The notes beneath the pieces were generated by a model that made no database searches, was not told the origin of the DNA, and was given only the letters and a program-made list of their open reading frames with translations. A DNA stretch of 64,000 bases from Raillietiella orientalis (lineage: Eukaryota). The stretch spans positions 434,001 through 498,000 of the forward strand of contig JAYWIR010000033.1 of assembly GCA_036172245.1 (NCBI GenBank), given 5' to 3'. The translations under genes and the position numbers were made by a program. Position 1 is the stretch's first letter. Every line of letters starts with the position of its first letter. Shown in pieces: positions 7,798 to 59,845 of this stretch.

Positions 7798-7810
7798 AAA
7801 AGGGGGAGAC

Positions 7811-13435: not shown

Positions 13436-13448
13436 AAAAGGGGAAGAC

Positions 13449-27354: not shown

Positions 27355-27437
27355 TGCTGCCTAATCTTTCACCCACACCACGCACAAGCACCAACGGAAA
27401 TGAAACTCAGCTGCAACGAAAAGACCGGTCCGCTCGA

Positions 27438-30400
27438 CGCTCCGGAATCTCCAGGACTGGGACCTTTTTAAGGAATCGGTCCGCGAGTTCTGTGAGCAGT
27501 TCCCCCTAATCGCCTGCCCCCCGGATTCGGCAAGGGTGCTCGCAACCATCGGGTCTATTTGCAGGCTCGTAGGTACGAGAGAACCCCTAATGTCCGTCTT
27601 CTGGACGAGTACCGCGCCGGGGCCGAACGCCAAGCCTGGCAATCCGGGTCGGCCAGCTTGCTGGACGACCAGGGCCGGGAATGTTCGTCCCCGGCGTCGG
27701 TACGGCATCTTGTGCGGAGTTTTTGTTCCTCCCTTTACGCCAGGGAGCCCCCGGATCGGAACGCTTCTCGGCGCTTGCTTCCGGATGGCGCTCCGGCAAT
27801 AGGGGAGGAGGAGATGGAAAGCCTCGACGAGCCTTTTACCACCGGCGAAATTCTCGCCGGTAGCAAAAGGCTTAAGAGGCGTAAAGCTCCAGGGAAAGAC
27901 GGCTTGTTCGCGGAGTTCTTTCAGAGCTTCGCGGAAGAGCTGGCATCCCTCCTGCTTAAGTTTATCAGGCTGATTCGAGACGAAGGCGATGTTTTCGCCT
28001 CGTTTCCGTCAGCCAGAGTGAGGCTCCTTCCGAAAGGGAGAGACCTCAGGAATTTAAAGAACTGGCGTCCGATCTCGATCGTGAATACGGACGCCAAGTT
28101 GATAGCAGGGCTATGGGCTTGGCGTCTTGGGCAGGTGGCAGAATCCGTTATTAGCCCGGAGCAGACTTATGCTCTTCGCGAGCGAAGTATGGATGCCAAC
28201 ATCTTCTTCGCAAGCACATGGATGCACCTACAGAGAAGAGAAAAGAAAGGGAGAGGGAAAGTCGGCAACGCTACATTGGGGCCGCCAGCCGGGCTGGGAA
28301 GGGAAAACTGGGCGGGGAAGGGGGCCCTGGCGCTCGCAGTCGATCTCCACAAGGCGTTCGACTGTGTAGACCAGGAACTCCTCTTAGAGTTCCTGGGTCG
28401 CATGGGCTTCCAACCCTCTCTGATTTCCTACCTGCGCTCTTGCTGGCGGAATGCGATGATTACCGTCTCTTTCAGTGGACAGAATGTGTATGGCGTGCCG
28501 GTGCGGCGAAGCATAAGGCAGAGCGATAGCCTCAGCCCCCTGCTCTTCAGCACCTACTTTGATTTGGTGCTGAGAGCGTACAAGGTGACTTTGGCCCCTT
28601 TGCCGAACTCGTGCCCCGGCACGCCCGCCGTAGCAGCGTACGCCGACGATCTTCTGCTCTTGTTGCCAATGTCCACCCCGGCAAAGGCGGTCGGAGACTT
28701 CTTCGATCTGCTCAGCCGCGGAACCGGACTGCAGATTAACAGGGCGAAGTCGTCGTTTGTGCCAATAGGTGCGGCGTGGGCAGGGCAGCAGGACTGGGTC
28801 CGTCTGGGGATCCCCACGGCGAGGTGCTTCAAGTATCTTGATGTGTCGTTGGGGAACTACTCCCCTGCGGAAGCGTGGTCCAGCTGCCTCCAAAAAGACG
28901 AGACGGCGATCGGCCCGTTCCTGGGAGGCAAGTTTCACTTGCCGGAACGGGCCGCGGTTTGGAACGCCTTCGCGGACTTCATCCTGCGCCCTTTGCTTTT
29001 TTTTTGCCCCCCCACTGTGGAATCCAAGAGGAGGACGAAGGACCTCCTCCGTATCGCCCTTTGGGGCAAGGGGAGGCCTTGAGTCCCTCTGAGGGACTTG
29101 TGCGCTCCGCGTTGGGTCGGCGGTCTTGACCTCCTGACGCTGGAGCGTGTGGAGAAGCAGCTGCGGTGGCGAACCCTCGCCATCGCAGCAAAGATGTGGA
29201 GCACCCCTTGGTGCACTCCGGCTTGCCTCCTGGCCAGCCGTGTGTCACGGTGCGATGCACTCGTGTCTTTTCTTCTGAGTGGTGGCCGGAAGATGCGAAA
29301 ATGCGGCCTACTGCTTGGGCGCCTGGCAACATTGGCCAAGGAGAACAGCTGGATGGTTTGCTGCCCCGCCAACTCTCCCGCCTGGCTGGAGGAGAATATT
29401 GGAATGTTGGCAGTGGTTAACCAGAGAAGCCACGAGGCGTGGAATCGTCTCCGATGCAGCTTTTACGCCCTCTGCACGCTGCGGAATCTCCTGGAGAGTC
29501 CAGCAAGATGCACGTGGGCAGAGACGACCTGCCTAGCTACGGCGCTCCCCTTTCTGAGGAGGGCACTTCACAGCAGCCGGACGTCAAGGTGGCAAGTCTC
29601 GTGCTGCATCGAGGGACGCGAGAAGTTGATTAGCGGCTGGACAACAGGAGAACTGGCCGACGCCACGACACCGAGCTTCCAGCCGCGAGGACTAAGAAGA
29701 TGGGGCGAGCTGCTGGCCTTCCCTATGGATGTGCTGAAGTGACTTCCGCTTCTTCAGGAATCCAGGATCCTGCCCCTAAAGTGGAGAGAGTCGGCGTTGC
29801 TGTTGTTGCATTGGGGTTTACCCTGCAACGCACGCCGCTCTCACTGGACAAGAGGAGTTGTGGATCCTGCGTGTGTCAGGTGCGGAGAGCGGGAATCGCT
29901 CTTCCACCTTATTGTGGACTGTGCTGCCCTTCGTGTTCTTTGGGAACGCTTTGGTAGGATCCTCTGTCTCCCTACGGACAGTTCCTTTAGAGACGTTCTT
30001 CGGCTCTCTTCGTGAAGGGCGCCCTGCAGGCAGCCGCAGATTTGCAGCCATGTGCTGCGTCCGAGGCATCGTGGCGGCATGGAGCGACACCAACAAGGAA
30101 GGAGTGGGTCAACACGCGAGGGATGTCATCCCATATGCCCAACGCTTCTTGCGGAGAGCTGCTGGATCGCCCCAACTGGGGAATATACAGATGGAGCTCG
30201 AGGGCTTCCTTCAACGGATGGGCCCTCCTCCCAGCGAACAGTGATCCCTTTTCTGCCCCCGAACCTCATTTGTTTGTTTGCGTTCTTGTTTTTATTTTTG
30301 TTTTTTCCCATCCCCTTTCGTTGCCGGGGAGTGCAACGCCGGGCTGCGTCTCGGCGTCCCGGTAGGTCCCGTGCATGAGGCTGTGAGCGGGGCCTGGTAC

Positions 30401-30453
30401 CGCGATTGTAAAGTTTTTTATAAATAAACGCCTTGGGCGTCCCCGGGTGGCAA
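27438..30453 (+). mobile_element. Family D element, 3' portion (linker, RT, zinc finger, 3' UTR), host of B1/B2
   Basis: ORF 27559-29082 with WRPISIVN, DLHKAFD and AYADD; CVRC..LFHLIVDC near 29870. Ends AATAAAcgccttgggcgtccccgggtggcaa. Confidence 0.92.
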
Positions 30454-33182
30454 CGCCGAATCCCCGGGGCAGATGTTGCACAGGGAACTGTTCGCAGAGC
30501 TCCCAAATTGAGTCCTTAAATAGGTCCCAATCCGCGAGACTCTGGAGGGTGATACCTCGCAGGAATTCACGAAGATGTTCTTTCCCTCCTCACACGCGCG
30601 TCCATTCCCCTTGCATACGCCAATCCCTGGATGGCGGTCCCTTGTCGCGCGGGCGCATCTCGAATAATTACCGGGAATAGTCCAACAGCGTCGATCCAAC
30701 TGTCCCTCGTTTTCTTACCCGTCTGAACAGGTCTTCGTCGAGGAAGACGTGATCCACGCTGCTGACCATCCCGCTTATTTCTGTCAACAACTTGCGCGCG
30801 CGCATGGCGGAGCCCAACTCGTTGATCACGTTCCCCTTTGGTCCGGGCTGATCTGAGAGCAGGCGGACGTTGAAATCCCCTGCTATCAGATGCGCCTTTC
30901 GCACGTCCGCGTCCACCAGCTATTCGCGCTTCAAGGTTTCCAGTAACGCGTTGCGCTGCTGGTATCCCTGTTTACCGCTAGGAGCGCACACATTGGTGAC
31001 GATGAGGTCGATCGAATCGGACCACCTGAGAATCAGTTGGCCGATCCGTCCGCCGTCCTTAAAGCGCACGCCCTTCACGGCCGCGTTAATGGCTGGCTTT
31101 AGGAAGAACGCGACCTCACAAGTGTTGCGGGCGCCGCATCTCCAGTACAACCGCCCTCCCGCGTTCGTTTCGATGTCCTGGGCGTTTTTTGCGGTGATCG
31201 CGTGGATCTCCTGCAAATGTACCAGGTCGAAATCTCGCAAGGTGGCGGCTGTATCTCGTCTGTTTCCGTGGTCGCGCAGCCCGTTAACATTCCAACTGGC
31301 CGCGCGGATCCTACGGCGACAGGCGAGTCCAGGTATTATTCCTGGGAACCTCGCGGTGTTGCTCCAGCCACCTTTTGGGGCGGGTCGCTGGACGGGGTCG
31401 GCGTCTTGCCCACCAACTCCCCATCCTTCTTTAGTGCCGACGTCTCCGGCTGCCCGTGCGAAAGGGGTGTTGTTCGTACCTGTTGACCCACATCCATTGG
31501 TGCCGGTGGTTCAGGTTCGGCGGTTTCAGGGGGCACTACTGACCCCAGGTTACCCTCCTCCATTGGAATCGCCTCCTCGTCGACTTCCGCACGTGGGTGA
31601 TGCCCGACTTGGGCTCCCACGCTGCCATCCACTGGTTCCTCCACTATTGGATCCCCCTCACGAGTAGGCGGAATGCACCTTCGGGGTTTCTGGGATTTTC
31701 GCCCCGCTTTCCTTAGTAATGCTTCCGCAGAGGAGGATGCACTTCCGGCCTCCCGGTCCGACTCACCTGCGGGGGCCACTTTAGCCACTGCCGAACTACA
31801 CAACCCTTTTCGCGAAGGGTTCTCGTGTTCGGCATCTTTGCGAAAAGCTTTCCGGCGGCCTTCTCGAAGGCTGCGTCCTTGGTTTCGGCGATTTTGTCGT
31901 CCGGCTGACCCTCTTCGCAAGCAGGGGGTGGGTTTTCGCGCGCATTCGTCGCGGCGGGAAAATCGATCGAAGCCGTATCGCCCCCGGTTGTGACGGCGGG
32001 AACGTCAATGCGCTCCAGAGTAACCGTGCATTCCCGGAGAGTTTTTACACGCGACACGGATTGGGCTTTTGTTCCGGCCGCCGCCTTCTCTTCTTTCTTT
32101 GGGACATGCTTGTCCTTTTTTTCTTTTTTGGCTTTGACTAGATGCAAGCCCTGTTCACCCTCTGCGGTTTCGGGAAGATTTTTCTCCGATGCCGCGCTTG
32201 AAGCTTGAATTATTGGCAGCTTTTCTCGGCCAGTTTCACGGTTTTCTATTTTTTCTTTCCCCGCGCGTTTCCCTTGCGCCTTTTTAACGGCCGAGGAAAT
32301 TAGGGTGGGGCGTTTAGGGCACACGCGACGGACGTGTCCCTTCTCCCCGCACAAGTAGCATACGATGTTTAGGCACCTCTTACGGATGTGTTCGACCGCT
32401 TCACAGTAGCCGCAATACCGTGTCTTGCCCGCATACCAGAGGTCTACCGGTTCTCCCGCGACCTCAAGTTTGTAGGGTAGCTTCGCTTTGTTTTTGGGGA
32501 TTAAGCGTGCCGCGGCCAGGCCCCCGAAGTGGCGTCCGTAGCCCTCAAAGATTGTGGGCTTCGGCCACAGCGCGTGTACGTCCCCGTACTTACTTAATTT
32601 TGCTTTTAGGGCAGTGCGCGTCATGCGCTTGGATATTCCTGTCAAGTGGACCACTACCGAGTGGTCCATTGACACCGGGAAGATCTTACGGCCGTCCATG
32701 ATCAGCGGGGTATTTATAAGGCGATCGGATAGGCTGAGCTGTTGCACACCAGCTCAACCCGCGGCGCCCCGCTGAGCACGCACAGACCTTCCAGATCTTC
32801 CTCACGGACATTAGCGTTTTGAAGCGCTCTGCTGAAAGAGCGCGCCGTGTTTATTTCAAACAAAGGGCCTACCTTGTATACAAGCGATGGCTTGTATTCA
32901 GAGGCCCGATAGGCGGCTTCCTTGGCCATGGCCTCTGCACTGGGAGCGGCGACCATTTCACTCCAAGTCTTCGCCGGCTGCAAAGACGTTCCAGGGACTA
33001 TTGCCCCATAGCTGTAGGTCTTGTGGTAGAACTTGCCTCCCCCACAACTACATCCATCGCAGTGTCCTCTAACACGGCTGCCATCGGACACCGACGACCC
33101 ACACTTTACACCTGACTACACTAAAAACTCTGGTTGCTTCCCAGACAAGGCTGGCGGAGCGACCAAAAAACACGTCCACCCA
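30454..33182 (-). mobile_element. Element E (D-related lineage), 5' portion: ORF1 plus APE up to LPRGFG; host of D
   Basis: ORF1 pieces 32714-33091, 31713-32747 (CGYCEAVEHIRKRC, CYLCGEKGHVRRVC) and 31336-31920. APE has SWNVNG, LQEIH and GDFN. Confidence 0.9.
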
Positions 33183-33197
33183 CACCGGCTTTCGGCG

Positions 33198-36100
33198 ATG
33201 CCACCCGGATTCGCCGGGACGTTCATTAAAAACATTTCAACGGTCAATACACAACGTGGAACAAGGCCCCACTGACGACCACGCTATACTGGAACTGCCG
33301 GGACACCGGGACGCAGCCCTGTGTGGCTCTCCTCGGCAGTGAAGGGGGATAAGGGAGAAAACAAAAATAAAATAAAAGCGAAAAACAAACCACAAAAAAA
33401 AAGTTTGGAGGGCCATGAAGGGATCACAGAAGACTGCTGGGAGCGCCCATACTTTGCAGGATGCCTTCTGGTTCTATTTTCAGTTTTCCTAGATTGGGCC
33501 ATCGGGTAGCTCTCTGCAGGAAGCAAGAAGCATACTCGATGACGTCCCTCACGATGCAGCCTTTATCTTCGGCATCCCTCCAGGCCGCCACGATACCACG
33601 AATGTAGCAAAGTGCTGCCAGGGCTGCGGCTGGACTGAGGGCGTCCCGCACGAAGACAAGACTGAAGACACATCCAACATTGCCACCATCCGCTATCCGG
33701 AGGGCCGTTTTCAAACGATCCCATAGAATCTGGAGGCATGGCATTCAACTAAGAGGTGGAGGAGCGACTCCCGCTCCCCACACCTAACACACGCCGGATT
33801 TACTCTTCCCCGCGTCCAGTGAAAGCGGCGCGCGTTGCAGGGTACACCCCAATGCAGCCACAGAAGCGCCGATTCTTGCCACTTCAGGGGAAGAATCCTG
33901 GATCCAAGTAAAACCGGGGACCACTTCAGGTCATCCAATCAAATGTTGAGCAGCTCGCTCCATCTTCTAAATCCACGCGGCTGGAGACTAGGGCTCGTTG
34001 CATCTGTCAACTCTCCCATGGTTCAGCCGCTCATCATCTTCTCTCTGCCTGCGATACGGCAGCAGACTTGCCACCTTGGCTTCCGGCTTTCGTGAAGCGC
34101 CCTTTGGAGGAAGGGCATCGCCGTAACAAGGGGTGTGCCTTCCGCCCACGTGCAACTCGGTGGAAATTGAAGAATTTCACGGAGAGTTCGGCGGGCGTGA
34201 AAGCCGACTCGCAGGCAGTTCATCCGGTCTTCGCACTCCTGGTTCTGTTTGGCCAAAGTGCCAGCAGTCTCTTCCAGCTAAGCGGAGGAGTTGGCAGGGC
34301 CACAAACCATCCAGTCGTTCTCCTTTGCCAGGGTTGCCATGCGGCCGAGCATTAGACCGCATCTTCGAATCTTCCAGCCAGGGCACAGAAGAAACGATGC
34401 GAGTCCTTGGCAGCGGGAAGCACGCCTGGCCAGGAGGCGGGCCGGAATGCACCAAGCGATGCTCCACATCTTCGCTGCGATGGCGAGAGTCCGCCATCGC
34501 AGCTGGATTTCCACGCGCTCCAGCGTCAGGATACTGAGACCGCCGTCCCAAAGCGGAGCGCACAAGTCCATCAAAGAGACTCGGGGCCTCCCCTTGCCCA
34601 AAAGAGCTATGCGGAAGAGGTCCTTTGTCCGCTTTTTAATTTTCTCTGTGGAGGGGGCCAACAAAAAGCAGGGAGCGGAGGAGAGGAGCCGCGAACGTGT
34701 TCCAAACCGCGTCCCGTTCAGGCAGGAAAAACCTGCCGCCTCGGAATGGGCCAATCGCCGTCTCTACTTTTTAGAGGCAGCCTGACCACGCTTCCGCAGG
34801 GGAGTAGTCCCCCAACGGCATACCGAGGTACTTGATGCACCTCACCGTGAGGATCCCCAAACCGACCCAGCCCTGCCCACGCCGCACCAACTGGCATCAC
34901 GGACGAATTTGCCCTGTTCATCGTAAGTCCGGTTCCCCGATGCAGCACGTCGAAGAACTCCTCGACCGCCGAAGCCGGGGTGTACATAGTGAGCAGCAGC
35001 AGAAGGTCGTCCGCGTACTCTGAAACGGCCGGCGTACCGGCACAGTCGTACGGCAGGTGCGCCAGAGTTTCCCTTTACGCTCTCTGTACCAACTCAAAGT
35101 AAGTACTGAAGAGCAAGGGGCTTAGGCTGTCTCCCTGCCGGATCCCACGCCGCACCGGCACGCCGTGCACGATCTACCCGCTGATAGTAACGTTGATAAG
35201 CGCGTCGCGCAGCAGGAGCGCAGATAGGCCACTAATGAGGCCGGGAAGCCCAAGCGTTCCAGAAGCTCCAAAAGGATATTCTGGTCGACGAAATCGAATG
35301 CTTTTCGCAAGTCGATTGCTACCGCAAGGGCTCCGTCACCCACCCGACCATTTAACCCCCTGCGGGAGCACGCACCAGAATTCCGGCTGCGCACCAAACT
35401 CCTTTCCTGTTAGAGCTCTAGCCAGGTGGAAGCGTGGAACAGGTTCGCCTCCATGCTCCGCCCGGGAACAGCATATGTCTATTCTGGGCTGATGAAGATG
35501 TTGGCAACCCGTCCCAAACGCTCTGCCTACATCTTGACTATCAACTTGGCGTCCGGATTCACTATTGTGATGGGACGCCAGTTGTTCATGCTCCTCAGAT
35601 CTCCTCCCTTAGGGAGGAGCCGCACCTTTGCCGAACGAAACGAGGCATGAACTTCACGTATTTCGCGTATCAGCAACGTAAGTTGCTGTCCCTGTGGGGT
35701 AAGCTCAGCAGCGAAAGTTTGATTAAACTTCGCGGGCAGGCCGTCCTTCTTTAAAGCCTTTTGCCTCTTGAGCTTTCCGATGGCCGAGAGGATCTCGTCC
35801 ATCGTGAAAGGCTCGTCGAGGGTCTTTCTCTGCTCCTCCCCGATCGCTGGAGCGTCTTCCGGAAGCAGGAGTCGTGTAATGTTTTCCTCCGGAAGTGACC
35901 TGGCATACAGGGAGGAGTAGTAACTCCGCAGCAGGCCGCGGATTCCGACAGGTGCCGAGTGCTCCTGGCCCTGATCGTCCAGATAGCTTGCCGATCCGGA
36001 CTGCCAGGCTTGCCTCTCGGCTCCTGCTTTGTATTCCGGCAGCCTGCGGATGTCGAGGGTCCTGGCGTAACGACCAGCCTGCAGGTAGGCTCGTTCGTTA

Positions 36101-38725
36101 CGGACTTCGGTCCCAAAACCCGTAGGTATGCGGTGCAGAGGGAACTGGACGCAGAACTCCTAGAGCGACCGCTTGAAGCGGTCCCAATCCTGGAGTGTCC
36201 GCAGCCTCAAGCTCCATATGAACGTGCGGAGATGTTCCGCCGCGTCCGAGAGCTTCAGCCAGTCTTCTGGGAGACGCCACGCTGTCGAGGGGGGGCCCCT
36301 GTCGCGCGCATGGATCTCGAGGACTAGCGCGCGATGGTCAGACTGCTCGCACGGTAACTTGCCGCGCCTGCCCACGCGAGGGCACAGGTGCTCGTCAAGA
36401 AACACGTGGTAAATGCTGTCTTCCATCCCCGGTGCACTGGCCAACAAATTACAGGTGTGCACCGTCATGCACACCTCGTTGACCACGTCTCGCTCGGGAT
36501 TCTGCCCATCTCATTTCAGACGAACGTTGAAATCGCCTGCAACCAGATGGGCATTCCGCACGCCTGCTTCAGTCAGCTAGTCTCGCCGGAGGGCAAGGAA
36601 AAACTCTTTCTTCGCCCTCCTGTTCATCAGGTCCGCGCCGCTCGGTGCGTACACGTTCGTGACGATCAGATCGATCGAGTCGGACCACCTGAGTGTCAGA
36701 TGGCCGACACGACCGTTATCGTCGAACCGTACGCCGCGAGCCGCGGCCTCGACGGCAGGCCGAAGCAGGTAGGCGACACCACAAGTTTTCGCTCTCCCAC
36801 ACCTGTACCATAGCCGCCCTCCGGAGATCCGTTCGATCTCTTGCGCTTGTTCTGCAGAGATCACGTGGATCTCCTGCAGCAGCGCAAGATCGTAGGACTT
36901 CAGAAGGGCGGCGATGTCTCGTCTCCTGCCGGCGTCTGTCATGCCGGTCACGTTCCTAACGGCGATGCGCAGACGACGGCAGGAGGAGATTCCCGGCATT
37001 ACTGCTGAGAAGATTAAGTTGTGGGGGAGCCCTCCTCTTGCGAGGCAGGCGGGATGTCCATGGGGCTTCCGGCCTTCTCAGGCACCTGAGGCACCTGTTC
37101 GGCCTCCACCCCCTCCATCCCCTCCGTGTCCGCGCGTGGGAGTCTCTCGGGCGATGGGTCCCGAGAGTTGCCCACGCTCATGGCACCCTCGCTTGCGGAA
37201 GCCATCTGTTCCCCTTCGACGGGGGAGACGAGCTTTCTTGTCTTTGTGGACTTACGTCTAGCCTTCTTGCGCGGTGCCGTGGAAACGGAGGCTGCATTTC
37301 CGGCCTCAACCTCGGGGTCGGAAGTGGGGAACTCCTGAGGCAAAACCGGACGCCTTACGGCCTTCTTGCCAGCCTTGAAGGGTTCTGGCTGCAATGAGGC
37401 GGCCAGTTCCTCCGCGGCTCGCGCGAAGGCTACGTCATCGATGGTGGTGTCGATGACGGACGCCGCCGCCGGCTCGCTCCCCTCGCTGTTGACAGTGTCA
37501 ACAGAGGGGAGGTCGTCGGTAGCGGCGACTTCTTTCCGGCAGCGTTCGGCAACGTCGAGAACGCGTTCGACAACGACGCTGCACTCTCTAATTATCGCGC
37601 TACCCTGCTCTTTCTTCTTTTGTTGTTAGGCGATTTTCTTTCCCATCCTCCTCTCCTTCTTTGATTTTTTGGCCTTTGCCATTTGCCACCCAGTCTTCTG
37701 GCTTGCTTTCTCAACTTTTTCGGCGTTGGTCGCCGTGGTCTTTGATGCGGCCTGTGTCTAGGGCGCGGGTGGCACAGGCTTCGCGGCAGCTTTCGCAGCC
37801 AGCCTTTTCTGCAGAAGCCGGGCGCGTTTTTTAAGGTTTCTCTTGGAAACCACCCGCTCTGCTGCTTTTGGGCACACTTTTTTCGTGTGACATATTGTGC
37901 CGCAAACTTTGCACTGCACATTGGGACGCCTCTTCTTGAGGTGACCCGACGTATTGCAGAAGCCACAGTGTTTCGGCTTCCCCACATACCAGAGGTCGAC
38001 GGTTTCGCCTTCGACCACCAGTTTGTGGGGAAGAGTGCAGCCCTCCCGAACGGTCACGCGCGCAGCAGTGAGGCCGTGTTGCAGCCCCGTGTAGTCTTTG
38101 GAAGGACTTACTTTCGTCCACTGCGCGTGGATCGTTCCGAACTGTTCCAAAGCGGCGCGAACCTGTTCTTTGTGCATTCGCGCGGTTACGCCTAATAGGT
38201 GGACCACCATGCTGCGGTCCGCCGTAGTGAGGAGGAGCCTGTGCGTCCTCATCACAACGGGGGTTTTAAGCAGTCGTTGGGCTAGCTCTGCATGTTTGCA
38301 GATGACCTCAAGGTACTGAATCCCGCTGCGGATGGTCATAGCGCTGAGCTCCTCCTCTTTCACATCGAGAGCGCGCATGCCCTTCGAGAAGGCGCGCGCG
38401 CTCCCTAAAGAATAAAAATTGCCTACCTTTTAGAACAATGAGGGGTTGTACCCCTCCTCTACATAGGCCGAGAATTCCGCCGCGGCTGCAGGCGTTGGCG
38501 GCGACACAACGGCGCTCCACGCCCGCGCTGCAGCGGGGATCGATACTGTGGGGGCGGATGCCCCCACCTCCATCGCCTCTGGGGACGGCGTTTCCGCTTC
38601 CCCCTGGCCATCCCTGGTGGTCGCGTCAGGCATCGCTTCCTGATCGACCACCGAAACACAGGACGCTATCACTAGGGGAAACTTCCTGGCACGAGGAGCA
38701 CCGAGAAAACACGTCCACCCTGGAG
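33198..38725 (-). mobile_element. Copy B3, full-length but chimeric (B'-type 5' half, D-type 3' half), degraded
   Basis: ORF1 from 38633 (MPDATTRDG); ORF2 36999->33424 in many pieces. The two junctions lie at different target sites. Confidence 0.88.
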
Positions 38726-38745
38726 CACACATAGCATTCGACTGC
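38710..38745 (-). promoter_or_regulatory. Putative composite core promoter: Inr-like GCAGTC (target-derived) plus DPE-like GGACGTG (element-derived) at +28
   Basis: A(+1) at 38743 and GGACG starting at 38716. Same spacing at 27458/27431 and 57774/57747. Confidence 0.5.
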
Positions 38746-40744
38746 GTCGACCAGGATCTCCTTATGGAGCTCCTGGAACGCATGGGTTTTCCATCCGTCC
38801 TCCGGTCTTACCTACGCTCCTGCTGGCGCAACGCGTATATCAATATTGGTTTCAGCGGCCGGCACGTGTACTGCGTGCCTGAGCGACGCGGCATTTAACA
38901 GGGTGACAGCCTGAGCCCCTTGCTCTTCAGCATCTACTTCGAGTTGGTGCTGAGGGCATACAGGGTAACTCTGGCAACTCTGCCGAGCTCGTGTGCCGGT
39001 ACGCCTGCCGTGTCGGCCTATGCAGACGATCTTCTGCTGCTGCTTCCCGGGTACACCCCGGCGAGTGCGCTCGAGGACTTCTTTGAAATGCTGCGCCGCG
39101 AAACGGGCCCTAAGGTAAACAGGGCGAAGTCGTTCATGGTCTTCGTCGGTTCGGCGTGGGCTGAACGGTCGGACTGGATCTTCTTGAGGATCCCCACGGG
39201 CAGGTGATTCAAGTACCTTTGCGTTCGGTTGGGGGACTTCTGCGCAGCAGAAGCCCTGTGCGACCGTCTCCAAAAGGCAGCGTTGGCGATTGGTCCGTTC
39301 CAAGAAAGCAAGTGCTACTTGCAAGAACGGGCCGCGGTGTGGAACGCGTTTGCGGCCCCCCTCTTTGGCCCCCTACTTTAGGTTTGCCCCGTCCCTTATT
39401 TCATTCCAAAACGAGCAGCGAACCTCCTGAGGACAGTCCTTTGAGGCAAAAGGAGGTCCCGTGTGAGGCTCAAAGACTTGTGCGCTCCACGTAAGGACGG
39501 TGGACTTGGCGTACTTACGCTGGAGCGCATGGAACTGCAACTCCAATTCAGGACGCTCGACCTCGCGGCCGAATTGTGGAACACGCCTTGATGCGTTCCA
39601 GCACGCCTCCTGGCCCAACGAGCCTGCGGATCCGGCAGACTTTTGTCGTTTCTGTCTGCGCGCGTCTGCTGAAGAGCACACTGTGGCTCCATGCTGCGAC
39701 GCATCCTCGTTGCGGTTCAAGAGAACGCCTGGATCTCCTGCCTTCCAGGGAACTACTCTGCCTGGTTGCACGAGTCAGTCTCCACCTGGGAAAAGATCCA
39801 CGTTCTGGCGAGCACAAGGAACACTTGCCTGAAAAGGTACGTCCGCTGGACGCTGCAGGAGATCGTGCAGTCCCACGACAAGCTTCTGTGGGCCTTGATA
39901 ACCCCCCTCGCCACATTGCTGACACTCCTTGTGAATGCCAGGGACAGTAGCAAGCAGGGGAAATGGACCGTGTCCTGCACGATAGGAGGCAGGACACAAT
40001 CGATAAAGGCGTGGACATCTCGGCAGCTAGCGGACCCTGCGACGCCGAGTGTCCCGCTTAACGGAATTCCACGCTAGAGCGAGCTACTCGGACTATCTCC
40101 GGAGGAGATGAAGTGGCCCCCAGCGTCCTGGAACAGTGCATTCCTCCCCCTGAAATGGCAGGATGTGGCGTTGATTGTGGTACTCTGGGGATAACCATTC
40201 AAAGCACGCCTGCACCACACCACCCGGGGGGCTGTGGATCCTAATTGTGACCGGTGTGGGGAAAAAGAAACACTCCCTCACCTTCTCCTTGATTGCAGAG
40301 CCGTCCGCCCTTTGTGGGATCGTCTCGCGGCGATCCTGGACTTGCGCGGATGCGGCATAAAGGACGTTTTAAGGAGCCTCTTCTGTAGTGACGCCCTGTC
40401 CCCGCCCGCTAGTGTAGCAGTCCTCTGCTGCATGAGAGGAATAGTGGCGGCTTGGAACGCCACCAGAAGAAGGCGTCAGCCAACCGGCAAAGCCTTACAC
40501 TGGACTCGCCTTTTCGCGCGCAGTGTCTGCAAGTGGCGCCACTTAGGCGCTAAAAGGACTCAGCTTGTGCGGATCCTTGACAGGATCTAGAGGACCTGTC
40601 CACGCGCACCGTGATCCCGTCCCCGCCCTCCCACCCCTACAACATTTGTTCCTCCCCACATTTGAGCTTTTGGTTCCTTTTTGTTTTTCTTTATTCCCCA
40701 TCCCCGCGCATCGGTAGGACCTCTCCGGCATGGAGCCGGTAACC
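38726..40744 (+). mobile_element. Element G, degraded 3' portion (RT from KAFD, zinc finger, partial 3' UTR)
   Basis: AFDCVDQDLL, SAYADDLLL (38920-39207), CDRC..LPHLLLDC (40234-40590). Confidence 0.88.
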
Positions 40745-50300: not shown

Positions 50301-52893
50301 GCCCTGGTGCCTTGCCTCCACCGAGGATTCGGCGTTCTTACGGAAAACCGCACCAACGGGTGATCAGACAGAGTAGTCAACGTGTCTCGAAAACCCTGAA
50401 TGCGATTCCCTAGTTCGGTGCTGTGCAGGACGTGATCGATCGGCTTGTGACTGGCTGTTCGCCACACCAGTCCGAGCTCGTCGGACAGCCGCCGATACTC
50501 CGTCCTTCCTCTGGCGTCTTGGGAATGACTGATCTCATCCAATATGTTGAGATAGCCAGCAACAATCACGTCGTCCTTGCGGCGACCTTTTCACGAAGTG
50601 CTGCATGCAGCGTCTCCGCCCAACGATGTTTCAGCCTGTGCGGCCCGTACACGTTTACCAGCTTAAGGTAAACAGTAGCGGACCAGCCCAATCGCACGCC
50701 GATGATTCGTCCGTGTTGGGGACAGAACACTTCCAGAATAGTTGAGGCCAAGTGGTTCTTGATTAGGACCCCCACACTCTGCGTGTTCCTTTTTTCCTCG
50801 CTGACGAACATGTGCCTGTTGAATCGCAGTTCCATTTACTGACTAATCTCGCGACCCATCTTGTGGGTCTCCTGCTGGCACACTATGTCTTGTTGTGCAA
50901 TGGTCCGCACAATCCTTTTTCTTTTTCCCTGGCCGAGCACACCCTTTACATTTCAGGAGGCGATGTTCAGCCTCCTGGCGGTCGATAGGGAAGAGGCCAT
51001 AAAAGGGGGAGACCTATTTCTTGGCCTTCCTGAGTCTCTTTTGTCTGAGAGAACGTGCTCTTCCAGACAATGAAGAAGCAGCTGGCTTCTCGCTGCTGGC
51101 GGCACTCTCAGTTCCTGTGAGGTCGGTTATTTCCGCTTCCTCCGTCAAGTGTTCGGCCCGCGCGAACAATTTTCGAGATAGCGCCACTATCTCGACCTTG
51201 GCGCAGAAGTTGGTTTTTAAGTCGAGAAGCTGTTCCTCTAGCTTCCCGCGCTTGGTGACTTCCACAAACTGGTTGACCTTCTCCTGTGCATTGCAGAACT
51301 TCTGGAAGATTTTCTCTTGCTGGGAATCGCTGTGCACCTTTAAGACTTCATTAGCCAGTTATGCCAACTTCTGTGTAGATTGCAGGGCCTCTTGCGACAC
51401 CGTAGTGGCTTCGGCTATTTCTTCTCCCGCGCCTTCCGGCGCTAGCTCCATCTTCTCGCCTTCTTGCTCTTCACCTTCCAGGATAAGAAAGGTTTCTTGC
51501 TCCTTGACGTGCATGCTCCTTTTTTTTTTCTTCCCTACCTGTATGAATCCGTCTTTCTATACCGGGAGGGCTTCTTTCAGCTTCTTCGGTCTTCCTGCAT
51601 TATGAGGCTGTTTCGCATCCTTAAGGTTTCTCTCTCTCCCGGGAGAGAGACCTCGAATCCTTCTGCAGTCTGCAAACTCTGGACAGCTTCATTTGGCATG
51701 TCCGTGTTTCTTGCAGAAGGAGCACACCTCCGGCTGCGGGCAGTTTAGGACTTGATGTACTACTCTGCCGCAGTTGAAACAACCACACGTTGGGCAAGCG
51801 CTGGTCTGGTGGCCGAACTGCTTGTATCCGGTGCAGAATACCGGTTGTTCCCGGTGATCCACGTTCACTCCCTAGGATTGTTCGTCGAGAACGGCTAATC
51901 CAGGGATCACAGCTCCCTCTTTCAACTTCATTTTGGCGATTATGTCGCTGGAAAATTATATTTTTAGAGAACTTCTGGAATTCAAGGGCCAGAACTTCCC
52001 CGTACTGTTCCAAAAAGTTCCACACCGTCAATTGCGGTATCAGGGTGGAGTTGCCGTTCAGAAAGACGGTTGTGAATGGCATTTCGCCAATACCACGAAC
52101 CATCCTCCCTTGTATATTGATCCCCTTCTGGATCAATCGCTTTCTAATATTTTCACAGTCTGTGAAGAATGTGAACCCGTTGTTTGCTGGTATGATCGCC
52201 TGTATGGGATCAAAATTGATGTCCGTTTTGACCGAGGGACAGATACACCTCCCTGATATTATTGAACTTGATCAGTTCAGTCTTGAAAATGATAAGCTTC
52301 ACATTCGGCCCTAACTCCACGATCGGCCGATCCACCTTTTGGACTTTTCCGCATAGCGACTTCCCCAATTCTCTTGGCGGGTGGACACTCGCTTTTCCAG
52401 CCGCCACCGACGCATAGGAAAAGGGCTGCGCCGCCGCAGTCGAACAAAATGGCGTCTCGCCCTGCACCGCGTAAACGCCCGCGGGTCCAGCCTGGGACGA
52501 CGACGCCGTGAGCGCAACCGTCCACGTCGCCACCGTTGCTGCAGCGGGCATCACCCTCGGCATCGCCGCCTCAGGCACGACCTTCCCGGCCGCGGGCACG
52601 ATCCTCGGCGTCGCCGCCACGGGCACGACCCTTGGCATCGCCGCCGCCGGCGCAGCAATGCCCGCCGCGGGCGCGATCCTCGGCATGCCTACCACCGCCT
52701 CGCCGTTGCCCCACGTTATTTCCATGGCTTCCATGGAGGACGACGGTCTTTCCACTCGTCCTCCAGGTGCCTGCATCCTGGCAGCTGGTCTTGCTGCACG
52801 GGACGACAGCAGGTCTTCCGCCGTGATCTTCTCGGCGCTTCTTTTGTAGTTTCGTCTGGAAAACTTCCCTTGTCCGGGCTCACACGATCACAA
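47345..52893 (-). mobile_element. Family A copy A4, degraded, about 50 nt shorter at the 5' end, TSD on both sides
   Basis: Colinear with A2/A3: ORF1 52776->51014, ORF2 from 51000. TSDs at 47329-47344 and 52894-52909. Confidence 0.93.
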
Positions 52894-55840
52894 TCACCGA
52901 CTAGGCAGGAGACGAGGAATCTCTCGACTGTCAAGAAGGTGACTTCGTTGCCGTTTGTTGAAGGCGTAGCGAAAGCAACGCCCTCAGAGAGAGCAGCGAA
53001 AATCCCGGAGGTTTCCGCAACTATTGTCGCTCAAGCCTCCGGAAATAGCGAAGTCGAATGGAAGGATGTGGAAAGGAGGAAAGAAAAATCTCCCAAAAAA
53101 GCTTCGCAACATCCACCCTTGAGCTCTTCCAAAGAAAAAAGCAGTCGCGGGAATACGAAAACACGCGCGGCTTGTGCCTTTTCTCAGGAAAGCCAGCGCC
53201 TTTAACGCGTGCAAGTCCGCTTCTGTGACCGCCCAGAAGACCATTCCGGTGCAATCGGACGGATGCAAGCGCACTTCGATCGTGCGAGCATCACACTACG
53301 CAAAGGAGTCCCATAGCGCCGCTGAACGAGCGCCCGATCACATTAGTGAATTCGGACGTCAAGTTGTTTTCGAAACTTTTGTTGGCGCGGACGGGTAGGA
53401 TCGCGGAATCCTTGGTAAGTCCTGAGCAGACGTACGCTGTTCGTGGGAGGTCCATGGACGCGAATCTCTTGTTCATCCGCACATGGCTGCAATTGCAGCA
53501 TCGTCTGGCGGTAAAACGTCGTGCGGAAGCGACGCCTTCGATCTTCCATCGATTGAGGCGCGGGACGCAAATGGAGACAACGGAAGCCTTGGCGGTTGCA
53601 GTCGATTTGCACAAAGCTTTCGATTGCGTGAACCAAAACTTTCTTCTTGAGCTTTTGGAACGTCTGGGTCTTCCGGCATCCCTGTTGGTGTACTTGCGCT
53701 CCTGCTGTCGCCACGCGATTACATCCATTGTTTTCAGTGGCTGTCGCGTGTATAGCGTGCCGGTACGACGAGGAATTAGGCAGGGTGCTAGCTAAAGCCC
53801 GCTGCTCTTCAGCATCTATATTGAATTGGTACTGGAGGCTTACAGGCTGACGCTAGCTAATCTGCCGAGCTCCTGTCCAGGTACGCCGGCCGTGGCAGAC
53901 TATGCCGACGACCTGCTTCTCCTGTTGCCCATGTCTATCCCGGCGACATCGCTTAAAGACTTCTTTGAGTTGATTCGTCGCGGTGCGGGCGTGAGCGTTA
54001 ACAGGAGTAAGTGTATGGTTGTTCCGGTGGGTGCGACGTGGAAGGGGCAGTCCGACTGGATCGACTTTGAGATTCATACGGGCAGGTACCTCAGGAACTT
54101 TGGCGTGCCGTTGGGCGACTTCTGCATCTCAGAAGCGTAGTCGGGCTGCCTTGGAAAGGCAGAGCGTGCACTTGGCCCGTTTTCAGGAGGCGAGTGAGTC
54201 TTGTGGGAACGTGCCTCCTTGTGGAACACCTTCGTTGCCCCCTCCTCCGCCTCCTGGTTTTTGTTTGTGCACTCCCCCAGGAAGTCAAAGTTTGGGCGCA
54301 GCGCCTTCTACGCAAAGCATTGTGGGGCGCTGCAAGATCCCGTGTTAGACTTAGAGACTTAGTGGCGGCGCCTCAGGATGCAGGCTGGGGCATCCTAGAC
54401 TTGAAAAGCATCGAGCTGCATATGCAGTTTCTAATGCTGCGGCTCTGTGCCAAGATTTGGTGTACGCCGTGGTGCTCACCCGCACGACTCATTCTAAGGC
54501 GCTGCACGGGAAGCGAGGGACTGCTTTCGTTGCTACCTTACTTTCGGCACACAAGAATAGGGTTTGGCTTCCCGCCGAGGCAGCTGTTCTCACTGCTGGA
54601 AGTCCAACGCTGGATATTTTGCCGCCCCATGAACATTAATGCGTGGCGGCAGTAATCTTCTTCATCGTGGGCAGCTTCCGAAGGAACGCCTTCGAAAGAT
54701 CTTCGATGCCTGCGACTTCTTTTCAGTCATCAAATGGACGGAGTCATGAAGGACAAGAAGATGTCGGATCATCTGGCCGCCACACCACTCGCCGCAGCGC
54801 TGTCTGCTTGCAGGGCAAGCAACGACGGTTGCCTATCGGCGGAATGGGAGTTCTTCTGCAAAATAGAGGGAGTCAGTAAGCTTCTCGGCAGCTGGACGAC
54901 AAAGTAGCTGGTGCAAGCAGCCACTCCTCGGAATCAAGCGAAGGGCCTGCTTTGATGCAGCGAACATTTAAGTGTGCATCTTGAGGAGATAGAAATTCCC
55001 CCCGTTTATTTGGACAGCTTCGTGTTTCTTCTACAGTGGAAACAAGATGTGCACAATGTACAAAATTTTTGTACATTGTGCATCACACTGTAATAAACAG
55101 CGAAGTATCGTTTCCGAGGGAGCTGCTTTGCCAAACTGTTTAAGGTGCCTAGAGATCGAGTCTTTTCCGCACCTTTTGCTGGACTGCGGTGACCTCCGGG
55201 AACTTTCGCGAAGGCTCACTTCGGCCATTATGCTACAAGGAGGCACTGCCATTGATGTGCTGCGGCGCTTCTTCAGCAGAAATGGACGTTTGGTTGGCGC
55301 GATTGCCGAAACCATATGTTGCGTTCGCTCCATCGTGAAGGCTATCTACGCCCTGGAGTTGTCAGCGCAGCGAAGGTGGGCTAGTCTGCTTGCAGCTTAA
55401 TTCATGGAGAAGGCTTAAAGGTGGTCTCATCTTCGTTACAAGGTGAAAGAGGACATCACCGGCCTACATCGCCGGTTTTCATACCTTTGAGAACGGCGTA
55501 ATCTGGTGACCCCTGCGACCTCTCGCCCACCTATACTAAGTCTCCGTTCGCTCGGTAAAATTTCCGGTGCCCATGCCTTTATCCCCGTGTCTTCCAGAGC
55601 GATCCCAAAGACCCTTATCCCGTCCTCCTTATTCATGTTTTCATTTTATTTTGGTTTCTTTGTGTTCCCCGCCCTCCCCACACCGTCCGCAAAACTGTTA
55701 CTCTTGCCTGCGTGCCAGCAATATTCTCTTTATTCTTGTTCGGTCGTCCATTGGAAGTTTGGTTCCCAACTGATTTATTTTACATGATTTTTTTTGTTGA
55801 TGTAATATGCAATAAACGCCCCGTCTTGACCACGTAAGAA
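52894..55840 (+). mobile_element. C2 3' portion, with an internal deletion that removes the APE
   Basis: Matches C1 15404-15870, then C1 17497-20004; YADD near 53900. Confidence 0.92.
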
Positions 55841-57756
55841 ATCTCTTGCGCCTGTTGTGCGGAGATCACGTGGATCTCCTGCAGCAGCGCAAGTTCGTAC
55901 GACTCCAGAACGGCGGTCATGTCTCGTCTCCTGCCGTCGTCTGTCATTGCGTTCACGTTCTAAACGGCGTTGCGCAGACGACGGCAAAAGTAGATTCCCG
56001 GCATTACTGCTGGGGAGATTAAGGTGTTGGGGAGCCCTCCTCTTCCGATGAGGGCGGGATGTCCATGGTAGTTTCGGCCTTCTCAGGCACCTGAGGCACC
56101 TGTTCGGCCTCCACATCTTCCATCCCCTTCGTGTCCACGCTTGGAATTCCCTCAAGCGACGGGTCCCGCGAGTTTCCCACGCTCATGGCACCCTCATTCG
56201 CAGATGCCATCTCTTCCCCCTCGACGGGGGAGACGAGCTTCCTCGGCTTTGTGGACTTACGTCCAGCCTTCTTGCGGGGTGCCGGGGAAACGGAGGCTGC
56301 GCTTCCGGCCTCCACCTCAGGGTCGGAAGTGATGGACTCCTGAGGGGAGGCCGGACGCCTTACGGCCGTTTTGCCAGCCTTGCATGGTTTGAGCTGCAAC
56401 AAGGCCGCCAGTTCCTCTTCAACTCGCGCGAAGGCTACGTCATCGATGGTGGTGTCGATGACGGACGCCGCCGCCGGCTCGCTCTTCTCGCTGTTGACAG
56501 AGTCAACAGAGGAGTGGTCGCCGGTAGCGGCAAGTTCTTTCTGGCAGCGTTTGCCAACATCGACAACGCATTCGACGACGAAGCTGCAGATTTTAATTAT
56601 CGCGCTAACCTGCTCTTTCTCCTTCTGTTGGTAGGCGATTTTTTTCTCCAACCTCCTCTCGTTCTTTGATTTTTTGGCCGTAGCCACCTGCCACCCATGC
56701 TCCTGGCTAGCTTTCTTGACTTGTTCGGCGTTGTTCGCCGAGTTCTCGGGTGCGGCCTGGGCCTTGGGAGCGGGTGGCACAGCTGTCTCCGCCAGCCTTT
56801 TCTGCAGAAGCCGGGCGCGTTTTTTAAGGCTTCTCTTGGAAACCACACGCACTGCTGCTTCTGGGCACACCCCCCTCGTGTGACCCATTGTGCCGCATAC
56901 TTGGCACTGCACGTTGGGACACGTCTTTTTGAGCTGGCCCGACGTTTTGCAGAAGCCACAGTATTTCGGCTTCCCCACATACCAGAGGTCAACGGTTTCG
57001 CCTTCGAACACCAGATTGTGTGGAAGAGTGCACCCCTCCCGAACGGTTACGCGCGAAGCCGTGAGGCCGTGTTGCAGCCCCGTGTAGTCCTCGAAAGGAC
57101 TAACTTTCGTCCACTGCGCGTGGACCGTTCCGAACTGTTCCAGAGCAGCGCGAACCTGTTCTTTGCGCATTCGCGCGGTTACGCCTAACAGGTGGACCAC
57201 CATGCTGCGGTCTGCCGTAGTAAGAAGGAGCCTACGCGTCCCTATCACAAAGGGGGTTTTGAGCAGTCGTTGGGCAAGCTCTGAATGTTTGCAGATGATC
57301 TTAACGTATTGACTTTCGCTGCGGATGGTCACAGCGCGGACCTCCTCCTCTTTCACATCGAGAGCGCGCATGCCCTTCGAAAAGGCGCGCGCTATCTAAA
57401 GAATAGAGATTGCCTACGTTGTAGAACAATGAGGAATTGTACCCCTCCTCTACATAGGCCGACAATTCCGCCGCGGCTGCAGCGATGGCGCCGACACAAC
57501 GGTGCTCCACGCCCGCACTGCAGCGGGGACCGATTCTGTGAGGGCGGATGCCCCACCTCCATCGCCTCTAGGGGCGACGTTGCCGCCGCTTCCTGGCTCT
57601 CCTTCGCTTCTGGGGGCGGCGTTGCCGCTGCCCCCGGGCCATCTTTGGTGATCGCGTCAGGCATCGCTGCCTGATCGACCACCGATCCACACTACGCTTG
57701 CACTGGGGGAGACTTCCTGGCACAAGGTGCACCAAGAATACACGTCCGCCCTGGAG
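55841..57756 (-). mobile_element. B4 5' portion (ORF1 plus APE start)
   Basis: ORF 56019-57371 with CGFCKTSGQLKKTC and CQVCGTMGHTRGVC. ORF2 ATG at 56004. Confidence 0.92.
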
Positions 57757-59845
57757 TAAGAAAGGCGGTCGACTGCGTATATCAGGATATCCTCCTGGAG
57801 GTCCCGGAACGCCTCGGGCTTCCGGTGCACCTCGTGGCGTATATTCGCGCTTGTTGGCGCCACGCACTAACTTTCATCCCTTATAGCGGCTGCCACGTGT
57901 ACAGCGTGCCGCTGCGGCGGGTCATCAGCCAGGGCGACAGTTTAAGCCCATTGCCCTTCAGCATCTTCTTTGAGTTGGTGCTAAGTGCGTACAGGCTGAC
58001 GCTGGTCAACTTGCCGAGCCTTTGTCCAGGAACGCCTTTTGTGGCGGCCTATGCTGACGACCTGCTTCTTCTTTTACCCATGAGCACCCCGGCGTTCAGT
58101 CTCGAGGATTTCTTCGAGCTGATTCGCCGGGGAGCGTACGTGAGCGTAAGCAGGAGCAAGAGAGTGGTTGTACCTATTGGTGCTGCGTTTAAGGGGCAGT
58201 GCGACTGGATCCGCCTGTGGATGTCGACCGCTTCGTCCACTCAAAATCTGGGCGATCCGCTGGGGTGCATCAGCCCAGTGGAAGTGCGGTCGGACTGCCT
58301 TCGGAAGGCTACGAGTGCGCTGAGCCCGTTCCAGCATGGCAGGTTCCTCCTGTCGAAGCGGGTCGCGATATGGAACACTTTCGTTGCCCTTCTTTTGCGC
58401 CCTCTGTTTTTGGTTAGCCCGCCAACCTACTCGGTGAAGATTCAGGCGCACAGCCTGATTAGGAACGCTTTTTGGGATCCTGCGAGGTCCAGGACCCGCC
58501 TGAAAGCCTTGGCAGCTCCACGACGGGATGCTGGCTTAGGCATTCTGACGCTGGAGAGAATCGAGCTGCAGGTGCATCTTCGAATGTTGGCCCTTTGCGC
58601 CAACGTTTGGTCCACTCCTTTCTGCGCTCCTGCGCGCCTGCTCCTGCGGCGCTGCACCGGCAGCGAAGGACTTCTGTCGCTGCGTCCGCACACGGAGCAC
58701 CCCACGACAAGATTCGGTTTCCCTTTGAAACCACTCTACCGGATCCTGGCACCCCAGGAAAGGATCTCCTGCCGCCTCAGGAAATTTGAAGCCTGGCGGC
58801 AGGAACCGTTGCATGGCTGGGCAAAGCACCAGGATGTTTCCCTCCTGGAACCCTGTTGCGTTCACCTCTCCCCGTAATGCAGGGTGGATGATGTCTGAAG
58901 CAGCCAGGAGAAGTGGACCCCCCTGGCCGTCACCCCTCTCGCCGACGCACTGTAAGCCCTCAGGGTAAGAGATGACAGCTTCGAACCGGCGAGATGAGAG
59001 GTCGCCTGCACCATTGGAGGAACAACACGACCTATTGGCGGCTGGAGGACTTGCGAGCTGGCAGACGCCGCCACGCCTATTCACATCTCGAAGGGACTCC
59101 TCCGGTAGAGCGAACACTTGAGTGTGTCCGCCGAAGAACTTGTGATCCCTCCCTCTTGTTTGACACTTCTGCCTTCCCCCTTTCGTGAAAGCAGGACTTC
59201 ATCATGGTGGTGCATTGGGGTTTTGACTCCAACCAGCAGAAGAACCGTGTTTCCGGGGGAGTTGTCTACTTAAACTGTAAGCGGTGCGGGGAAATGGGAA
59301 CGCTTCCGCACCTGCTTATGGACTGCAATGCCCTTCAAGGACTTTGGCGGAGGCTGGCCTCAGCTCTCCTGCACCAGGGGGACACCGCGAGGGACTTGAT
59401 GCGCCGCTTCTTCACGCCAGGCGGCCTGTCTATGAGTGCTGTAATTGCAACCGTGTGTTGCACCCGTGCCAACGACAAGGCCCACCGAGAGTTGGAGAAG
59501 CTGACCATTCATCCTCAGACCAACTGATTAGCCAGCACAAGCATGTCGTCGGCTGCCGAGTGGGCCCATCTGCCACAGGACGTAAGGAGAGAGATCGTCG
59601 GCATCTATCGCCGGTTTTGAATGGAAGGAACGGACTCGCCAAAGACCCCTCTCCTCTGCCCACCATATTTTTATTTTACATTTTTATAGTAGTGTATTTG
59701 TGGTTCCCTTTCTCCCGTAGCGGACTTTCGCCATAACGACCTGCGTGTCGGGGATCCCACCCCCTTTGTATCTTGTTTTCCCCATTGTGAGGTACCCTGT
59801 TCTCGGATAGTTCTTAACAAACGCCTTGGAGCACTCAAGTTACAA
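57757..59845 (+). mobile_element. Element F 3' portion (RT from KAFD, zinc finger, 3' UTR)
   Basis: ORF 57825-58877 with SQGDSLSP and AYADD; CKRC..LPHLLMDC (59204-59527). Confidence 0.9.

Follow-up and report, generated by a model that had tools for sequence, protein, structure and literature searches.

The promoters of the Drosophila long interspersed nuclear elements (LINEs) Doc, F, G, I and jockey combine an initiator (Inr) with a downstream promoter element (DPE), whose extended form in these elements has the consensus A/G-G-A/T-C-G-T-G/T-C/T at around +29 to +36 (PMC1636488). We found the same motif, with matches at all eight positions of that consensus, at the 5' ends of LINEs nested within one another in a 64-kb stretch of the genome of Raillietiella orientalis (contig JAYWIR010000033.1; the window, below, means this whole stretch), where in one LINE family, B, a CAGT lies 27 nucleotides (nt) upstream of it. 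In the fly elements the initiator consists of the element's own first bases, whereas here element-specific sequence starts at the motif or 11-22 nt before it, so any initiator at this locus would lie in target-derived DNA. A first-pass annotation of the window had read this arrangement as a core promoter assembled by insertion. Our preferred reading, which we hold tentatively, is that the 27-nt CAGT-to-GGAC spacing would mainly be a footprint of integration, with no start of transcription at CAGT, and would not alone be evidence of a promoter built by insertion.

Several other described systems resemble this locus in part. R1 elements of the melanogaster group, which insert into 28S ribosomal DNA (rDNA), are, like the elements here, site-specific LINEs with an apurinic/apyrimidinic endonuclease (APE). 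Transcripts of melanogaster-type R1 are inferred to include upstream 28S sequence, 6-27 nt long, which anneals at the target and gives precise 5' junctions, and ancestral R1 types make target duplications of 14 bp (PMC2718515); the duplications here are 22 nt or 14 nt. R1 targets rDNA, however, whereas the targets here are the second open reading frames (ORF2) of other LINEs, entered in antisense, and the likeness drawn here is one of features. The Tx1 clade (Tx1L in the Tx1D transposon, Keno in U2 genes) likewise comprises sequence-specific APE LINEs, including some with transposon targets (PMC4494074), but here several LINE families hit one another's coding sequence reciprocally and in antisense, and the likeness implies no phylogenetic placement. 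Zepp and ZeppL of green algae form LINE-only clusters by nested insertion into existing copies, as is the case here (PMC8226300). Zepp arrays are described as mostly 3' ends left by 5' truncation, whereas the present locus holds many full-length copies with precise junctions, several families and AATAAA before the 3' ends; the likeness is, again, drawn on features. Finally, transcription of HeT-A can start in the 3' end of an upstream element (PMC1636488), and in head-to-tail pairs such as those found here upstream DNA that is not the downstream element's own could likewise supply promoter function. Unlike in HeT-A, the candidate upstream element here would be target DNA, and the tandem pairs B2-B1 and B3-E have no CAGT at -27. 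A literature search found no description of LINEs that target the coding regions of other LINEs in antisense, which is weak evidence of absence.

Target sites of the B and XY families

Judged by its sequence, the window is an L1/Tx1-like LINE nest whose members insert site-specifically and in antisense into one another's ORF2. The features at the insertions in question, in order along the window, are as follows (RT, reverse transcriptase; ORF1, first open reading frame).

16022-20004, plus strand: X1, the ORF2 part (APE and RT) of an XY-family element; its 3' end, AATAAACGCCCCGGCG..GAGAA, adjoins antisense B1 ORF2
20005-21886, minus strand: B1, the 5' part of a B element (5' untranslated region, ORF1 and start of ORF2), cut by X1; begins GGACGTGT at 21886
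21887-21908, minus strand: TGGAGATTCCGGAGCGTCGAGC (22 nt), separating the 3' end of B2 from the 5' end of B1; forms, with a second copy, the direct repeats that flank B2
21909-27431, minus strand: B2, a full-length B element (5.5 kb); 3' end ..AATAAACGTCCCGGCGCACCCGGGTTTCAA at 21909, 5' end GGACCGGT at 27431
27432-30452, plus strand: D, a B-like LINE from '..STLRNLQDWD..' in ORF2 to its 3' end, target of B1 and B2; holds the second 22-nt repeat (27432-27453) and, on the minus strand, CCAGTCC (27455-27461, A at 27458)
30453-33198, minus strand: E, representing a third family by its 5' part and interrupted by the 3' end of D; GGACGTGT from 33177, with a 21-nt leader at 33198-33178
33199-38727, minus strand: B3, a full-length B element; 3' end at 33199 directly upstream of the E leader, GGACGTGT from 38716; inherited 11-nt leader TGCTCCAGGGT at 38727-38717
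38728-39615, plus strand: G, an RT fragment from '(H)IAFDCVDQ', target of B3; GCAGTC on the minus strand at 38745-38740, A at 38743
41741-42336, plus strand: H, an RT fragment ending '..VDLRKALD' and meeting the 3' end of C1; probably an element's left half, with F as the right half
42337-45972, minus strand: C1, a B 3' part (ORF2 to ..CCGGGTGAACA); probably the other half of B4, split by an XY insertion
45973-47328, plus strand: Y1, an XY 5' part (ORF1), cut by A4; AGACGTGG from 45995, preceded by a 22-nt B-ORF2-like segment at 45973-45994
53330-55840, plus strand: X2, an XY part from RT to the 3' end, which adjoins antisense B4 ORF2 at the same site as X1/B1
55841-57758, minus strand: B4, a B 5' part; GGACGTGT from 57747, 11-nt leader TACTCCAGGGC at 57758-57748
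57759-59845, plus strand: F, an RT fragment from '(R)KAVDCVYQ' to the 3' end, target of B4; GCAGTC on the minus strand at 57776-57771, A at 57774
59846-61228, plus strand: a 26-nt remnant of B-like antisense ORF2 (59846-59871) and a 22-nt segment (59872-59893), followed by Y2 (ORF1; AGACGTGT at 59894), cut by A5

At the junction of B2 with D, the whole 27 nt before the motif come from the target. Of these, the 22 nt that adjoin it, TGGAGATTCCGGAGCGTCGAGC (27453-27432), are colinear with the ORF2 of D, being in frame on the plus strand ('..RSTLRNLQDWDLFKESVREF..'), and are homologous to the intact ORF2 of B3, C1 and B2 ('..SLRLRTLQDWDRFKRS..'). Because these 22 nt belong to the target, alignment places the start of B2 exactly at GGAC. 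The same 22-mer recurs without mismatch at 21908-21887, between the 3' tail of B2 and the GGACG of B1, and B2 is thereby flanked by a perfect 22-bp direct repeat. At the D site the first-strand nick of the B family maps to CCCAGTCC^TGGAG (CAGTCC^TGGAG), within the QDWD codons, and B1 is the earlier of two insertions at this same place. The insertion of D into E might appear to be a further case, but it was ruled out as a QDWD-site event: the 3' end of D meets the ORF2 of E, in antisense, within the codons for '..LPRGFGV' (30453-30480), and the junction lies in PRGFG, about 66 nt beyond the QDWD site. We also observed that the D/E flank ACGCCGAATCCCCGGGG resembles the B-type 3' stem-loop (CGGCGAATCCGGG in B3), and pairing of the RNA 3' end with the target may guide some insertions.

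The second B site lies in RT motif A. Compared with six intact RT copies, the B3/G and B4/F junctions fall between the same two codons, with ..VDL on one side and H/R-K-A-F-D-C-V.. on the other. Here the 27 nt upstream of the motif are made up of 16 nt of target and an 11-nt leader borne by the element (TGCTCCAGGGT in B3, TACTCCAGGGC in B4). The two leaders are alike and are colinear with RT in none of the six intact copies, which argues that the leader travelled with the element; the retrotransposed unit of B3 and B4, as judged from these alignments, begins at least 11 nt upstream of the motif. Since this inherited leader is shared and is not target sequence, some RNA 5' ends would have lain upstream of GGACG. 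We considered the alternative that the 11 nt are contiguous RT target and rejected it, as the six intact RT copies differ and an alignment would need a 13-nt deletion.

Counted per 100 nt, identity between B3 and B4 is mostly 81-92%, whereas that between their flanks G and F is 51-78%, and this disparity identifies B3/G and B4/F as independent insertions; put more broadly, the elements are about 87% alike and the flanks about 60-70%. The same holds at the XY site, where X1 and X2 are mostly 84-100% identical but B1 and B4 only 40-84%, and where X1/B1 and X2/B4 emerge from the comparison as independent hits at one site. Segmental duplication was rejected as the source of both correspondences (B3/G with B4/F and X1/B1 with X2/B4) since the likeness of the elements far exceeds that of the flanks. 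The claim of site-specific antisense insertion made in the first-pass annotation is thus borne out by independent events at the same codon-level sites.

The 3' side of the motif-A site is preserved once, where the 3' tail of C1 (..CCGGGTGAACA) is joined to H, which ends '..VDLRKALD', and this places the nick at GCAG^TCGAA in the FDC codons of motif A. H and F share a 14-nt overlap, the last bases of H matching the first bases of F at 10 of 14 positions. Because of this overlap and the surviving 3' junction, H and F look like one target and B4 and C1 like one element, probably.

At the XY site, the 3' ends of X1 and X2 adjoin the antisense ORF2 of B1 and B4 at ..^ATCTCTTGCGC, and the 5' ends of Y1 and Y2 meet that B ORF2 sequence some 22 nt beyond this point (..CGTTYG^[22 nt]AGACG). 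The nick is at CGTTCG^ATCTC, about 22 nt from AGACG. The 22-nt segments before AGACG are alike at 17 of 22 positions between Y1 and Y2, and both share a 2-nt length difference from all four B copies; in the 26 nt before the nick, Y1 and Y2 agree at 15 of 26 positions while Y2 and B3 agree at 22. These numbers, which are small, hint that the 22-nt segment of Y1 and Y2 rides on the RNA. Where they could be read, the direct repeats are 22 bp and perfect (B2), about 22 nt (XY) and 14 nt at 10/14 identity (B4 with C1).

The DPE-like motif and the position 27 nt upstream

Seven element 5' ends in the window carry RGAC(G/C) followed by a T-rich run, the first base of the motif being at 21886 (B1), 27431 (B2), 33177 (E), 38716 (B3) and 57747 (B4) on the minus strand and at 45995 (Y1) and 59894 (Y2) on the plus strand. 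The motif is GGACC in B2 and GGACG in B3 and B4, and counting 27 nt upstream from its first G leads to the A of CCAGTCC at 27458 for B2 and to the A of GCAGTC at 38743 and 57774 for B3 and B4, exactly as the first-pass annotation had it, to the base. It was also right that both are antisense to GAC-TG codons at two unrelated sites: CCAGTCC to the GAC-TGG (Asp-Trp) of '..LQDWD..' in ORF2 and GCAGTC to the GAC-TGC (Asp-Cys) of RT motif A, '..KAFDCV..'. The further idea that the element's spacer varies in length to keep the distance survives in part, since the parts do sum to 27 at both sites (27+0 against 16+11), but the 22-nt 'spacer' of B2 is target DNA.

Outside these three copies the arrangement does not hold. 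In the XY 5' parts Y1 and Y2 (family C of the earlier account, whose bases here checked out), AGACG at 45995 and 59894 has at -27 the G of CCGTTT (45968) and of TCGTTC (59867). Among all seven 5' ends, CAGT at -27 is kept by three (B2, B3 and B4), while B1 has T and the remaining three (E, Y1, Y2) have G; among the families with the motif, CAGT at -27 is confined to B. The fly Inr consensus TCAKTY, which may not be that of the host, is fitted at -27 by none of the seven; of the other Inr consensuses, YYANWYY fits one and BBCABW three. Family A, which had been set aside from the start as not fitting, indeed shows no DPE-like match at the right distance from its shared 5' end (TCGTTCAGC..).

The motif itself is a striking match to that of the fly elements. 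All eight positions of the extended DPE consensus (RGWCGTKY) are matched by GGACGTGT or AGACGTGT in five of the seven copies (B1, B3, B4, E and Y2), Y1 matching at seven positions and B2 at six, and the shorter RGWYVT is found in six of the seven; these consensuses, like those for the Inr, are fly-derived and may not be those of the host. By arithmetic, an 8/8 match is expected by chance at 16/65536 per position. In alignment three families, with an identity of about 65%, keep the motif at their 5' boundary. A DPE-type motif on the element side, as first proposed, thus stands, and RGACGTGY may well be a downstream core-promoter element. We considered whether a conserved RNA hairpin could explain the motif instead, and rejected this because covariation was not found: in the alignment of families, a hairpin over RGACGTG has 4 predicted pairs, 0 compensatory changes and a predicted energy of -1.0 kcal/mol.

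Could the shared CAGTC and its spacing lack mechanistic meaning altogether? There are just two independent sites, and in 4.8% of 200,000 draws a 60-nt flank taken at random had one or more 5-mers in common with the flank of B3 at the same offset. CAGTC at -28 is the sole same-offset 5-mer common to the B2 and B3/B4 flanks. However, CAGT has a background of 413 occurrences in 128,000 strand positions, or 0.0032 at any one pre-specified position, and the pentamer matches the independently mapped 3' junctions at both sites; we consider pure coincidence the least probable of the explanations discussed here.

Two side observations concern similar sequences elsewhere in the window. The full-length 5' terminus of family A, TCGTTCAG.. 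(15841, 53329), resembles the sequence before the XY nick, TCGTTCG^ (59865-59871), and in this genome TCGTTC could resemble a start site. At two of three sites in intact targets, ACGTG is found 5-8 nt past the second-strand cut (..GCAGAGATCACGTGG; ..GAGCTCCATATGAACGTGCGG), echoing the RGACGTG of the elements; these occurrences are at 36858-36870 and in the ORF2 antisense beside the QDWD site.

Integration and transcription as possible sources of the spacing

At both B sites the first-strand nick falls at the CAGTC pentamer. Target choice by the endonuclease would put the nick there, and on that account CAGTC would recur close to the 5' ends of B elements although the two coding contexts are unrelated. 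From the nick to RGACGTGY a short stretch of almost constant length is kept, consisting of 22 nt at D, 14 nt of target plus the 11-nt leader at RT, and about 22 nt at the XY site. We propose that this retained or inherited segment would be carried on the RNA and would help the complementary DNA (cDNA) to pair with the cut target, as described for melanogaster-type R1 (PMC2718515). Such pairing would give nucleotide-precise, full-length 5' junctions, and also the head-to-tail pairs B2-B1 and B3-E, whose members are separated by 21-22 nt. In B3 and B4, a leader with an outer half matching RT would anneal to the new target, and the non-matching 11 nt would be kept after removal of the flap, leaving the same junction at every event. 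The likeness of the 22-nt segments of Y1 and Y2, with their common 2-nt difference, would agree with this idea too, as a hint from small numbers.

Several observations weigh against an integration footprint. The distance from nick to GGAC differs between the two B sites (22 and 25 nt), as do the duplications (22 and 14 nt), yet CAGT-to-GGAC is exactly 27 nt at both despite the unequal parts. Under a pure footprint this equality would be a coincidence, by our estimate of roughly 1 in 5 to 1 in 10. The nick at the RT site depends on one 3' junction and on the judgement that the C1 tail ends ..TGAACA. Searches of the window found neither a target duplication around B3 nor the source of the 21-nt leader of E, and the 8/8 match of GGACGTGT/AGACGTGT to the extended DPE in five of seven copies invites a promoter reading.

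That promoter reading would have RGACGTGY act as a DPE, with TFIID starting transcription at the A of CAGTC in the target, 27 nt before the motif, so that the RNA would carry target sequence and only cognate antisense insertions would be well expressed. We regard it as possible but doubtful. The exact 27 nt at two unrelated sites, although the lengths of target and leader differ, is what it would predict, and the close match to the LINE DPE (8/8 in five copies, RGWYVT in six) and its retention at the 5' boundary of the three families agree with it. Of the fly initiator, however, only a CAGT core is seen, in three of seven copies, with a fit to TCAKTY in none, and the XY elements share the motif and the geometry yet have G at -27. 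B1 and E, moreover, now stand behind the 3' tail of another element, with T and G at -27, and family A does not fit. The inherited leader of B3/B4, which puts RNA 5' ends upstream of the motif, and the common 2-nt difference of the Y1/Y2 segments, with its hint of carriage on RNA, are in keeping with such a start, and R1 offers a precedent for target-derived RNA leaders (PMC2718515). The presence of CAGTC is explained by target choice alone, however, as it lies at the nick, and the integration machinery already fixes site and orientation, which makes their 'enforcement' by promoter assembly unnecessary.

A fuller version, in which the endonuclease cuts at an Inr-like CAGTC and the geometry sets a perfect DPE at +28, would create a TATA-less promoter that is half target and half element, with a target leader of about 27 nt that guides the next precise 5' integration. 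We think this unlikely.

The leaders themselves could point to a start inside the element. Those of B1 (22 nt), E (21 nt) and B3/B4 (11 nt) stop exactly at the 3' tail of the neighbour or at the target, none reaching -27, and most LINEs begin transcription at their own first base (PMC1636488). The RNA would then have its 5' end either at RGACG or 11-22 nt upstream of it, where the element-borne leader starts, and RGACGTGY would be some other 5'-end signal, such as a protein-binding, second-strand-priming or initiator-proximal element at a distance other than that of a DPE. But in B2 and Y1 nothing upstream of RGACG is specific to the element, the alignment lends no support to a conserved RNA hairpin at the motif, and the 8/8 DPE match would be left without a reason; an internal start is, in our judgement, quite improbable. 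Integration is our tentative explanation of the spacing itself. The promoter interpretation of the first-pass annotation is partly supported by these comparisons, in that site-specific antisense insertion, the DPE-like motif and an RNA leader upstream of it hold.

Composition of the window and significance

Every assignable part of the 64 kb consists of copies of retrotransposons without long terminal repeats (non-LTR), nested or in tandem, according to a map made by self-BLAST and tblastn. Two stretches fall outside this assignment: 180 nt at 15842-16021, from the 5' end of family A to X1, and most of the roughly 2.1 kb after G (39616-41740), which is only partly B-like (40034-40456). With family A ORF1 and ORF2 as queries, tblastn found about 20 LINE pieces on both strands, and self-BLAST resolved several families, A, B, E and XY among them, with a likeness of 65-90%. 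Pfam identified Exo_endo_phos (5.6e-17) and RVT_1 (7.2e-31) in one long frame, zf-RVT (8.8e-5) behind the RT and zf-CCHC (2.9e-4) in an upstream frame. The elements are APE-type LINEs with an ORF1 carrying CCHC knuckles and an ORF2 with APE and RT. In a protein search their best relatives were distant LINEs of at most 28% identity, the atlas relatives of the window come from mixed taxa, and Rfam gave no match in the window. The features that remain to be listed are these.

1-15841, minus strand: tandem array of family A LINEs in 5.64-kb units, ORF1 with CCHC and ORF2 with APE and RT (self-BLAST, repeats, Pfam, tblastn)
47329-53329, minus strand: A4, a full-length family A element, antisense in an XY element (self-BLAST, tblastn map)
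61229-63438, minus strand: A5, a 5'-truncated family A element
from 63436 (to 64000), plus strand: X3, an XY APE part, after A5

The units of the family A array stand head to tail and are 91-94% alike (1-15841). Their joints (..GAGTCGGTGA followed by ACTTGCTCCGCGG) fall at one and the same internal position of the 5' untranslated region each time, and the full 5' end is reached only by the last copy of the array (15841, matching 53329). Family A also lies in antisense at the same position of Y (XY ORF1) twice, at 47329 and 61229; per 100 nt the likeness is about 60-87% both between Y1 and Y2 and between the A copies, so that the two A insertions may or may not be independent.

B2, B3 and A4 are full-length copies with precise junctions. 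The 3' ends in the window read AATAAACGYCCCGGCG...CCGGG, a G+C stem-loop, followed by 5-8 nt closing in CA or AA, without poly(A). AATAAACGYC, the stem-loop (CCCGG..CCGGG) and the short CA or AA tail are common to all B, D, C1 and X 3' ends (21909-21945, 33199-33235, 30423-30452, 42337-42375, 19975-20004 and 55811-55840), and they are spaced as a polyadenylation signal and its cleavage site would be, and reverse transcription would begin at the unique end. The window has a G+C content of 52-61%, with observed/expected ratios of 0.98 for CpG and 0.57 for TpA over its whole length, and CpG decay is not seen in its old LINE copies by this whole-window measure.

Searches of other sequence collections added little. 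A metagenome scan with a degenerate B 5'-end pattern gave 91 matches, about the number expected by chance (arithmetic), and BLASTN and TBLASTN found no similarity to the window in the metagenome loci (80 loci listed). One DNA run, compared with positions 20001-40000, yielded 678 short contigs, mostly less than 90% alike, the 8 longest pieces covering 317-495 nt; among the matches listed there was no loose end or joint at the junctions.

The composite promoter, if real, would provide a eukaryotic example of promoter assembly at the junction of an insertion, and it would join LINE target choice, transcription and 5'-end integration in one 27-nt module. Regardless of the promoter, the window records LINE families whose safe-haven targets are conserved codons in the ORF2 of one another, entered in antisense, and its precise junctions and head-to-tail pairs lend themselves, as a clean natural data set, to the study of how APE-type LINEs cleave the second strand and join their 5' ends.

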